Shown: piece after piece, positions 11,640-14,600 of the stretch
Layout: the number at the start of each line of letters is the position of its first letter
How positions within the stretch are numbered: position 1 is the stretch's first letter
Assembly (NCBI GenBank): GCA_963693365.1
Contig: CAVNZM010000003.1
Location: 13,858,914 to 13,922,913, forward strand
Origin: Amoebidium appalachense
Taxonomy: Eukaryota; Protista; Ichthyosporea
Length of the DNA stretch: 64,000 bases
Direction of reading: 5' to 3'
Translations under genes and position numbers: made by a program
Notes under the pieces: generated by a model
Databases searched by the model: none
Seen by the model: the letters and a program-made list of their open reading frames with translations, nothing else
What the model was told of the DNA's origin: nothing

Positions 11640-14600
11640 ATGCAGGTCCAGGTGCCCGCTACCAAAGTGAGCGTTGTCAAGCGCACATACGAGTCATCAG
11701 ACTACAGAGACCAACGGTTTTCGGTAGGCGCCCCCCCCCCCCCCCCCCCCCCCCCCCCCCTTCCACCCTCTCGCCACCCCCGCCCCCCCTCCCTCCCACC
11801 TTTTTTGTCCCCCCCCCCCGTCCCTCCCCACCCCCTCCTTCCCCTTCCCCCCCCCCCCCCCCCCCTTGAACACAAACACAAACACACAAACATTCCTAGT
11901 TGCCGCCTTCAACGGGTGTTCTACTGCTGTTTCGAATACTGTTCTTCTCCTTTTCCCGTTTACCTCCTGCTCATTCCTCTTCTCTCTCTCTCTCTCTCTC
12001 TCTCTCTCTCTCTCTCTCTCTCTCTCTCTCTCTCTCTCTCTCTCTCTCTCTCTCTCTCTCTCTCTCTCTCTCTCTCTCTCTCTCTCTCTCTCTCTCTCTC
12101 TCTCTCTCTCTCTCTCTCTCTCTCTCTCTCTCTCTCTCTCCCCCCCCCCCCCCCCTCCCTTCCCCCTTCCTTTCTCTCCCTCCCTCCCTCCCTACCCCCC
12201 GCCCCCTCTCTTTCTCTCTCTGTCTGTCTGTCGGTCTGTCGGTCTGTTTGTCTCTCTCTCTCTGTGTGTTAGTGTGTGTATGTGTGTGTGTGTGTGTGTG
12301 TGTGTGTGTGTGTGTGTGTGTGTGTGTGGAAGGGGGGGAGGGGGGGGGGGGGGGGGGGAGGCTGCCCACTCCTGTGTGCCCCTCCGATTCACGCCATTTT
12401 CTGTCTCCCCTTCTTCTTTTTTCCCCATCTTACCACCGTGTAGTGTTTTCATCACCCTGGTCTCCCCCCCCCCTTCTGGCCTAAACCAAACCTTCCACCC
12501 CTTATCGTTTCTACCAACATTGCCCAGCCTTCCCCCCACCTCCACCCCTTTTTCTCTCTCTGTTTTCCTCCTTCTCTTCTTCCCTTTCTGCAGTGAGAGA
12601 GTTGCATCTCCTTTCTTTCCTTAAGTGATCTCACTCCGTCCCTGCCACTCTCTAATGCCCTCTTCCTTCCGCTCCCCCTCTCCCTGCTCCCCCTCTCCTT
12701 CCTCCCTCCCTCCCTCTCTCCATTCTCCGTCTCCCCTTCCACGCTCCTTCCCCTCCCCCCTTCTCTCTTCCCCCCCCCTGCCCCGTCCTTCCGTCTCGCC
12801 CCCCCCCTTCCCCCCCGCCCCTTCCCTGCCCCAGTCCCCCGCCTCCCCCCCCCCCCCCCCATCCCCCCCTTTTTGGGGGCCGGCGTACCCTCCGCCCTTC
12901 GATCTCCTTTTGCTCCGTCGTTTTCTTTTATTTGTGAAAGCTAAACTTCATCTATAACCCCCCCCCCCCCCCCCCCCCCCCCCCCCCCCCCCCGCGCCAA
13001 AAAAAAAAAAAAAGAAACAGGAAGGGGAGGGGGGGGGGGGGGGGGGACCCCTTCGTGGATGATGGGCTCTCTTTTACTCATATTCGTTGTGTTCTTAGCG
13101 CTCTTCAACACGAGTGATTCCACTTTTCTACCCTCGGATGCATAGTCTGCATGGTTGCTTTGTGTCGTGCATTTGTAAGCACATTCGCATTTTTCGCTGC
13201 ACTGCATTAGTTTGCACACACATCTTCACCTTTTTGCTCACCTTGCTCGCATAAGTAACTCTGCTTGTCTTTGATCAAGACGGGTTGACCCTCCCAAGTT
13301 CAGTTGATGCTGCTGTCTGAGTTGGAGCGTCGTATATACACGGGCTAAGGGGTCGAAACTCAGACGCAATTGATGACTTGGGCCCTCCCTGAGGATGCGC
13401 TCTGCTTATGACACATACTGTGCGCATGGCTGATGTTGCATACTTGAATGTTTGCCTTTGCATGTGTCCTGCACCATGCTTCTCATCGTGTATGCGTACT
13501 TCGTACTGTGTTCCGCATTTAAACCCCCCTCCCCCCCCCCCCCCCCCACACACACACACACACACACTCTCTCTCTCTCTCTCCTCCTTCTTTTTCGGCA
13601 TTCTTACTGATCCTTATAATCTCGGTTCTCGTGTTTACACACCCACGTAGGCGGACAGCCTGATGCACGCGCACACACACACACACACACACACACACAC
13701 ACACACACACACACACACACACACACACACACACACACACACACACACACACACACACACACATGCACAAACCACCTCTACCACCGGCAAATCCCTCTTC
13801 TCATTTCCTTTCCTTTCACCCTTTCACGCGTCCCCCCCTTCTTGTATATCCCCCCCCCCCCCCCCCCCCCCCCCCCGGGGGACCCCACCCCACCCACCCA
13901 CCCTCCTGTGCGCCTGTGCGCCCCTGCCCCACCCCCCCTGTCCAACTACCAACATAAACCACACCCTTTCTGAAATTTCCAATCTCCCAACTGCCCAGGG
14001 ATCAGCAAAAGTTCTCGAAGACAAACTGAAAAACACAGCCACTCTCTACGTAGGCAACCTTTCTTTCTACACCACAGAGGAGCAAATCTACGAACTTTTC
14101 TCCAAGTGCGGGGAGGTGAAACGTATCATTATGGGTCTGGACAGGTTCAGGAAGACACCGTGTGGTTTCTGCTTTGTTGAGTGAGTTATATCTTTCTCTC
14201 TCTCTCCCTTCTTTCCCCCGCTTCTTCTTCCTCCCCTCCCCCCCCCCCCCCCCCCTGTCTTCCTCGGGACTTAATTCTTTTCAGCTGGTGTAGTATGTTA
14301 GCCAGGGAAGTATCGACTTAGGTATCGACGGGGGAGCTTCCTAGAAGCCCCGTCTCCTGAGTTCCTATCTATATTTTTCTTGCTTCTGCTTACTGCTGCA
14401 ACTTTAACCCCCGGCCTTTCCCACTGCCCTTGCCTGCATAAGCAACCCTGCTCGTCTCTGATCAAGACGGGTGACCTACTCATGTTCAAGTGAAACAGTA
14501 TCTGAGTTGGGTTTCGTTAACGAGGGGAATAGGTCGAAACTCGGGTACTGTGGATGACGTGGGCCCCCCCTGAGGATGGGCTCTGCTTATTATGCATACT

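Follow-up and report, generated by a model that had tools for sequence, protein, structure and literature searches.

The stretch of DNA considered here (the window) is 64,000 nucleotides (nt) long and comes from the ichthyosporean Amoebidium appalachense (assembly GCA_963693365.1, contig CAVNZM010000003.1, positions 13,858,914 to 13,922,913 of the forward strand). It contains a dispersed repeat whose RNA is predicted to hold a hammerhead ribozyme with its parts in a new order. In the repeat copy called B14, this domain lies at 14437-14590. Judged from its sequence, the domain carries every conserved nucleotide and the three stems of a hammerhead, strung together in a non-circular order and with CUGANGA cut off from stem II; this fold is very probably real. 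By analogy with known hammerheads, the domain probably cleaves after U17. Taken together, the reading that the data favor is a complete, split-order hammerhead, predicted to cut after U17 and likely to work in pairs of copies, at the 3' end of a probable retroelement of the Naiad/Chlamys type; as a whole, this combination is reasonably likely.

The order of the parts along the chain is the 5' strand of stem II (positions 10.x), block S (GUU), block G (GAAA), and then the stem I partner (2.x) joined to CUGANGA, which is CUGAGGA in B14. The core becomes complete once stem I is recognized, a helix between the strand that follows GUU and the one that precedes CUGAGGA. This helix (14509-11/14567-69), which is GGAG/CUCC in subfamily A and has 5 base pairs (bp) in the copy at 57 kb, had escaped an earlier first-pass annotation of the same DNA. 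The core chain is broken between A9 and G10.1, where helices P0 and P1, which re-close it, and hairpin P2 take up the gap. Both stem I and stem II form pseudoknots; stem III continues through a kink-turn motif (3-nt bulge, tandem G.A pairs) into helix P3. The core nucleotides of B14 are C3 to A9 at 14570-76, G10.1 (14473) paired with C11.1 (14535), G12 to A15.1 at 14536-39, and U16.1 and U17 at 14507-08. The features of the domain in B14 are:

14438..14448, plus strand: 5' strands of the closing helices P0 (14438-44, pairing with 14584-90) and P1 (14446-48, pairing with 14578-80).
14450..14472, plus strand: hairpin P2, 8 bp, which stops directly before G10.1; its loop contains the palindrome UGAUCA.
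14473..14478, plus strand: stem II 5' strand, the detached half of block C; G10.1 is 14473.
14479..14488, plus strand: P3 5' strand, which pairs with 14555-14563 and joins the distal ends of stems I and II.
14489..14494, plus strand: bulged strand of the kink-turn, with three bulged nt followed by G, A and a last A that is U in subfamily A; the partner is GGA at 14552-14554 (UGA in subfamily A).
14495..14508, plus strand: stem III 3' strand, with G16.2 at 14506, U16.1 at 14507 and U17 at 14508.
14509..14511, plus strand: stem I strand 1.x, pairing with 14567-14569.
14514..14523, plus strand: 10-mer that is complementary to itself, within the linker from stem I to stem II; a candidate dimer contact.
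14530..14551, plus strand: block G, made up of the stem II 3' strand (C11.1 at 14535), G12, A13, A14 and A15.1 (14536-39), and the stem III 5' strand.
14567..14576, plus strand: stem I strand 2.x followed by C3-U4-G5-A6-G7-G8-A9 (C3 to A9 at 14570-14576).

Several of these elements had been described in the first-pass annotation. A coordinate check finds its long helix (14495-14508/14538-14551), its pseudoknot between GACCTA (14473-78) and TAGGTC (14530-35), with GACCC/GGGTC in subfamily A and GACCCA/TGGGTC in the 57-kb copy, its tandem-GA block and its closing stem (14438-44/14584-90) all in place. The U-A pair at the top of this helix (14508/14538) needs another reading: it consists of U17 and A14 of the core, which would be unpaired in the active fold. 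Likewise, the inner hairpin is better read as the self-complementary 10-mer, and in the 13-kb copy it carries a mismatch.

BLAST searches of the window with four query copies show the repeat to be scattered and to fall into three subfamilies, A, B and C. The copies that bear on the fold are:

14264..14683, plus strand: B14, a 5'-truncated subfamily B copy that ends at a C-run.
13250..13409, plus strand: subfamily A copy with a complete core (U17 at 13323).
30082..30241, plus strand: subfamily A copy (A30) with a complete core (U17 at 30155).
55904..56062, minus strand: subfamily A copy with A15.1>G, likely inactive to judge by this change.
56994..57131, minus strand: subfamily B copy with a complete core (U17 at 57087), truncated within P2.
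15146..15200, plus strand: subfamily C copy, truncated at block G, with a private U4>G change.
14880..14980, plus strand: decayed partial B copy; a second such copy lies at 3235-3419 on the minus strand.

Two of the copies that had been listed as keeping the pairings are defective: the one at 14880-14935 is cut short and has decayed (A6>G, no C15.2), and in the one at 55.9 kb A15.1 has become G. Among seven aligned copies, C3-U4-G5-A6-N7-G8-A9 beside stem I is intact in five, and the remainder of the core (G10.1-C11.1, G12-A13-A14, A15.1-U16.1, H17 and stem III) is complete in four, the other three being truncated or mutated. Stem I has 3-5 bp in the four complete copies, where pair 1.3-2.3 is G-C, A-U or G-U. 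The linker from block S to block G, that is from stem I to stem II, measures 18-24 nt in all seven. The kink-turn pattern (3-nt bulge, G.A and A.G pairs, two helices) recurs in each of the five copies that span it.

Over the seven copies, 90.8% of 261 cells are paired, against 32-46% when the partners are slid by 1-3 columns; one distal stem III column, misplaced in the MAFFT alignment, was corrected by hand. Compensatory or consistent changes are found in stems I, II, III and P3, and the number of cells changed on both sides is reached by only 5 of 500 shuffles. P3 is paired in 95.6% of its cells, and thus a feature of type-SGC hammerheads, a helix linking the distal ends of stems I and II, is present here. 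P0 and P1 (100% and 92% of cells paired) hardly vary and so give no covariation support in the window. Sequencing contigs add to the picture. The two sides of the stem II swap from U-A to C-G at 14477/14531 (T>C and A>G) each appear, unphased, in 63-95 contigs per DNA run, and C>T at 14567 in stem I makes up about 40-45% of the depth in two DNA runs. The domain had been called covarying, and its helices do pair across copies, but covariation within the window is modest and comes essentially from A versus B.

Subfamily C provides an out-of-sample test of the fold. The word CCGGATGA, once listed as a retained subfamily C word, turns out to be a private change of the window copy: in each of four runs at least 98.7% of the contig depth has T at 15187 and reads CUGAUGA. 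The subfamily C contigs also restore the GGA of the kink-turn. The window copy stops short of block S; for this subfamily a block S of the form GGUU-GGG was predicted because CC follows GAAA and a C-run precedes CUGAUGA; the upstream loose-end consensi begin with GGUU-GGG in both X1 and X2 (45 and 33 contigs), which gives C15.3-G16.3 instead of U-A. Two further variants were seen. At 15186, C3>T accounts for 2025 of 4817 depth (3 contigs) in run X14 and for less than 1% in three DNA runs. In one X2 contig (14476-14573), GGTCGAAAC occurs together with TGGATGA, a stem III strand that is shorter and of other sequence, and a stem I strand rich in C; this is likely a fourth subfamily.

Standard descriptors and Rfam models miss the domain because the CUGANGA block is separated from stem II. 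The Rfam scan that the first-pass annotation had proposed yields 86 matches with E values of 1 or less across the window, none at the gathering score and none on the domain. When 14380-14700 is scanned at E up to 10, there are three sub-threshold matches, to mir-981, Hammerhead_1 and sR47. The type I hammerhead model (RF00163) assigns the same stem II but with 14.2 bits against a cut-off of 34, and the blocks are not in circular order; the earlier failure to fold a canonical type I, II or III hammerhead accords with this. A box C/D reading was dropped, the sR47 match having 10.5 bits against a cut-off of 40. An intact type-SGC fold is also missing: in all four regions scanned, no stem II of at least 3 bp follows CUGANGA with 0-1 extra nt.

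Several results weigh against the fold or against the strength of its support. The split-order descriptor fits four window copies fully and nothing in 30 dinucleotide shuffles, a difference that is partly circular, since the descriptor was written from the same copies. Changes on both sides occur in 6 of 50 pairs, which 137 of 500 shuffles reach, and the count of pair types is reached by 494 of 500. Stem I of B14 has just 3 bp. In the X8 loose-end consensus, position 1.1 is C, and the agreement in this loose-end analysis reaches no more than 0.58-0.69. The nested fold energy of B14 resembles that of shuffles (z -1.2, 28 of 200), with z -2.8 for A30 and z -1.0 for the B14 reverse strand, in a calculation by nested folding programs, which cannot score stems I and II. 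A relaxed descriptor gives 14 matches in 12 of 89 motif-selected loci (40 viral, 49 metagenome), and the strict form fits none of the 40 viral loci; the relaxed matches were treated as chance because none has both P2 and P3 of at least 7 bp.

The same layout, with unrelated helix sequences, can be read by eye in nine Naiad consensi of Craig et al. 2021 (PMC8557442), in an unsystematic reading among 54 records. These come from a ctenophore, corals, a box jelly, an acanthocephalan, a clam shrimp and octopus. Naiad_Plae and Naiad_EuTe are identified by their headers, and Bfor, Amil, Aacu, Anas, 2_Movir, Obim and Ovul are named from the order of the file. In the parts of the records available, the shared layout is P1, P2 directly before G10.1, stem II, P3, stem III, NUH, stem I, GAAA and CUGANGA, with GUA, AUC or UUC as the cleavage triplet. 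There is variation in detail: stem I of Naiad Bfor has only 2 bp, Naiad Aacu shows two mismatches, the kink-turn in octopus is of the opposite polarity, and Naiad_EuTe has no kink-turn. No clear split fold was seen in a Chlamys record among the places viewed in the supplement, where exact-word searches were broken by line ends (PMC8557442). According to the portion of the paper at hand, Naiads and most Chlamys elements are without canonical hammerheads, and an "HHR_half_core" is noted, its second word 35-50 nt away. In two nematode Naiads (the records before the Naiad-3_Nbra and Naiad_Hcon headers), the 3' ends can be folded by eye into intact type-CSG hammerheads, with the blocks in the order C, S, G and a stem I-II helix; type-CSG had hitherto been reported from two metagenome sequences only (Eckert 2023, PMC10085705, as available).

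In the accessible text of Eckert et al. 2023 (PMC10085705), the non-circular types SGC (HRIMA-1 and variants) and CSG, found in metatranscriptomes and metagenomes, are validated, and it is assumed that hammerhead blocks cannot be interrupted. The window RNA resembles type-SGC in that S precedes G, stems I and II are pseudoknotted, a helix joins the distal stem I and II ends, and the full core is conserved. Unlike both types, it has a split block C, with a stem II strand 5' of everything and A9 unjoined to G10.1; it has the extra helices P0, P1 and P2; both of its stem III strands enter P3 via the kink-turn motif; and it belongs to a high-copy repeat of a eukaryote genome. Its S-to-G linker is 18-24 nt long, in contrast to about 3 nt in type-SGC. 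Because block C is split, the RNA, as read from its sequence, is outside all six named hammerhead types. The kink-turn motif matches the standard form (3-nt bulge, then G.A and A.G pairs between two helices; PMC5061560, seen in part), so that the kink-turn reading of the GA quartet offered earlier fits, but here the predicted kink-turn is embedded in a hammerhead stem.

A further parallel is offered by the hammerheads of Penelope-like elements, for which Cervera and de la Pena 2014 (PMC4209133), as far as the text was available, report a conserved extra nucleotide at 9/10.1, dimer action on tandem precursors and poor in vitro cleavage by minimal forms. The likenesses are a terminal position in what is likely a Penelope-like element, a long stem II and palindromes, and the site of the extra nucleotide is the site of the chain break here. 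The extra nucleotide and the dimer action therefore give a plausible origin and role for a split hammerhead. The earlier idea of a selected RNA structure akin to the hammerheads of Penelope elements finds support. The Penelope hammerheads differ in being circular permutations (type I) with a rudimentary stem III, whereas here stem III has at least 13 bp and the dimer would follow from topology. Literature searches, with most subscription journals and the supplements of Eckert 2023 outside their reach, found no prior description of a split-block-C hammerhead; the parts seen of 10.64898/2026.07.22.740005, PMC13159263 and 10.64898/2026.10.21.760802 contain none of a split-block hammerhead.

The host repeat has a constant 3' end followed by a C-run, and its 5' ends vary (BLAST, four query copies). 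The window has many C-runs and CA repeats, and in a search with a hand-made pattern 16 repeat 3' ends abut C-runs. B14 sits within an intron (14181-15636) of the host CBP20 gene, whose exon is 100% identical to a EukProt protein, the next best match (87%) being to an entry labelled Ihof, which stands for the ichthyosporean Ichthyophonus. It is flanked by a direct repeat:

14250..14265, plus strand: left arm of a 16-bp direct repeat around B14; the right arm is 14678-14693.

This is likely a target-site duplication. Contigs of X9 and X14 (one sample) match B14 with 0-1 differences yet diverge to other sequence upstream of 14264; given this and the flanking repeat, B14 is a young, truncated copy of a longer element. 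X9 and X14 are presumed RNA runs and are not counted as evidence that the repeat is transcribed. The C-run at the 3' end, the 5' truncation and the flanking repeat are marks of target-primed retrotransposition. The family is large, with 9537 and 4477 contigs in two DNA runs on a 451-bp B14 stretch, figures that are not copy numbers. Adjacent copies at 14264-15310 and 55800-56280 may be partial tandem copies like pseudo-long terminal repeats (pseudo-LTRs), or each may have inserted separately into a shared C-run. The second B copy has at its junction a 28-bp inverted segment (14855-14882) in place of P2 to P3; inversions are typical of Penelope-like insertions. Upstream of the RNA domain, the B element contains a branch-point-like CTTAAT, a pyrimidine tract and CAG (14270-14284). 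Penelope pseudo-LTRs have been reported to contain an intron (PMC4209133, in the part seen).

Microsatellite insertion, a fixed 3' end and 5' truncation, by which the Naiad/Chlamys type is recognized, are all found in the repeat. From these parallels, the repeat is probably the tail of a Penelope-like retroelement of this type. It shares with these elements, as far as the source is available (PMC8557442), a bias toward microsatellites, which for Chlamys insertions means (C)n, the lack of a canonical hammerhead, and the split fold of at least nine Naiad consensi. It differs in its ichthyosporean host, longer stem III and palindromic linker, and in showing no open reading frame (ORF) for a reverse transcriptase (RT) or endonuclease in the window.

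If the domain is active, the RNA would be cut between 14508 and 14509, after U17, by the usual hammerhead chemistry. In known hammerhead structures, stem II is stacked on stem III with stem I alongside stem II, an arrangement that keeps the outer ends of stems I and II well away from that of stem III. One molecule should then be unable to close the fold, because both stem III strands continue into P3, whose other end must meet the stem I and II tips. For a monomer the gap is some 60 A, as against linkers of 0 and 3 nt, at 2.8 A per pair and an angle of 50-55 degrees; this is a crude estimate from general helix parameters. Two copies may instead swap parts, with the cleavage and GAAA strands coming from one stretch and the CUGANGA and stem II strands from another, and the palindromes (S-to-G linker, P2 loop) might help the two to pair. 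On this view cleavage would require a pair of copies, such as a tandem precursor with two pseudo-LTRs provides, and would set free unit RNAs whose reverse transcription is primed at targets with C/G-runs. The self-complementary words of the linker differ by subfamily, yet they recur in A, B and C. Set against monomer action or a silent binding role, this dimer route has about an even chance.

The proposed route and its setting also face contrary evidence, to which the roughness of the gap estimate adds. The self-complementarity of the linker exceeds that of shuffles in only three of seven copies, all of B type, and the RNAcofold gain on dimer formation, 10-13 kcal/mol, is matched by shuffles (17 of 40 and 15 of 40). 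The S-to-G linkers of the Naiads, in the records at hand, are 1-7 nt long and lack self-complementarity. The 5' ends of the repeat copies do not cluster at the predicted cut. A Pfam search of 81 low-repeat ORF segments of the window found no RT, GIY-YIG or other nuclease domain; the matches were glycoside hydrolase family 114 (GH114) twice, RRM once and two weak ones.

The same split hammerhead might cleave as a monomer, provided that P3, or stem III in its distal part, can open or bend far enough. Type-SGC RNAs have 0-nt links between the stem I-II helix and stem III that are unexplained (Eckert 2023, PMC10085705, as available), an octopus Naiad version with a short stem III and a kink-turn might close, and the energy gain of the dimer is not specific. 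Here, though, both strands are continuous and not one, about 60 A must be bridged with 0 and 3 nt, and in the Naiad_EuTe record as seen the helix is nearly straight, with about 14 bp and 2-nt linkers. Monomer action is thus unlikely. It is less likely again that the domain is hammerhead-derived and catalytically silent, serving as a binding or priming signal for the RT of the element or for an L7Ae-family host protein. Such a role would suit a domain about 100 nt from a fixed 3' end, truncated copies that do not begin at the predicted cut, and the poor in vitro cleavage of minimal Penelope hammerheads (PMC4209133, in part); against it stands that all catalytic positions and a cleavable NUH triplet (GUU here; GUA, AUC and UUC in Naiads) are kept across subfamilies and phyla. 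As an added function, RT recognition is possible.

The earlier suggestion of a selenocysteine insertion sequence (SECIS)-like signal has fared worse. A SECIS for a selenoprotein ORF of the parent element would agree with the GUGA..GGAU quartet (tandem G.A) under a long helix and with the SECIS elements of some Naiads, such as those of some spiders and clams (PMC8557442, in the part seen). As read directly in the sequence, no AA motif lies 11-12 nt above the quartet; the kink-turn bulge is 3 nt, U precedes UGA in subfamily A, hammerhead strands fill the loop, and no SECIS model is among the three Rfam matches at E up to 10, all of which makes a SECIS very improbable. Chance pairing within a family of related repeats is the least credible explanation: although independent lineages in the window are few and the pair-count shuffle controls weak, the predicted features turned up in subfamily C and in unrelated Naiad sequences.

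A few other features of the window and its contigs may be mentioned. A piece of another repeat, starting with GGATGATGGGCTC, occupies 13057-13140, and the 13-kb A copy has apparently inserted into it. An array of about 4 kb (32300-36300) consists of (CA)n alternating with C-runs, and a short A-family 3' end is inserted at 36313-36345. Two exons of a GH114 gene lie at 25896-26114 and 27008-27271. In one X2 contig the domain (14537-14547) runs into short repeats that resemble TTAGGG/CTAGGG; this copy may lie at the end of a chromosome.

The favored reading, a split-order hammerhead in a retroelement tail, breaks the stated rule that the CUGANGA block is inseparable from stem II, and provides one exact predicted cut site (14508/14509). 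It also suggests a natural two-molecule ribozyme, and A9/G10.1 as an insertion point useful for RNA engineering. More tentatively, and with the balance of probability somewhat against it, the RNA may represent a seventh hammerhead topology, one that no single molecule can fold: a domain-swapped dimer, its active sites each made from two RNA copies and shaped by a kink-turn that a host L7Ae-family protein could clamp. It would be a copy counter that cuts only tandem precursors, and the hidden ribozyme that Naiad/Chlamys retroelements have kept from their ancestor, in hosts ranging from single-celled relatives of animals to octopus. The contributions of this window are a probable non-animal host, targeting of C-runs, a set of three subfamilies, linkers with palindromes and a stem III that is both long and kinked. 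As far as sequence can tell, a ribozyme permuted in a non-circular order would now be placed in eukaryote genomes at high copy number.

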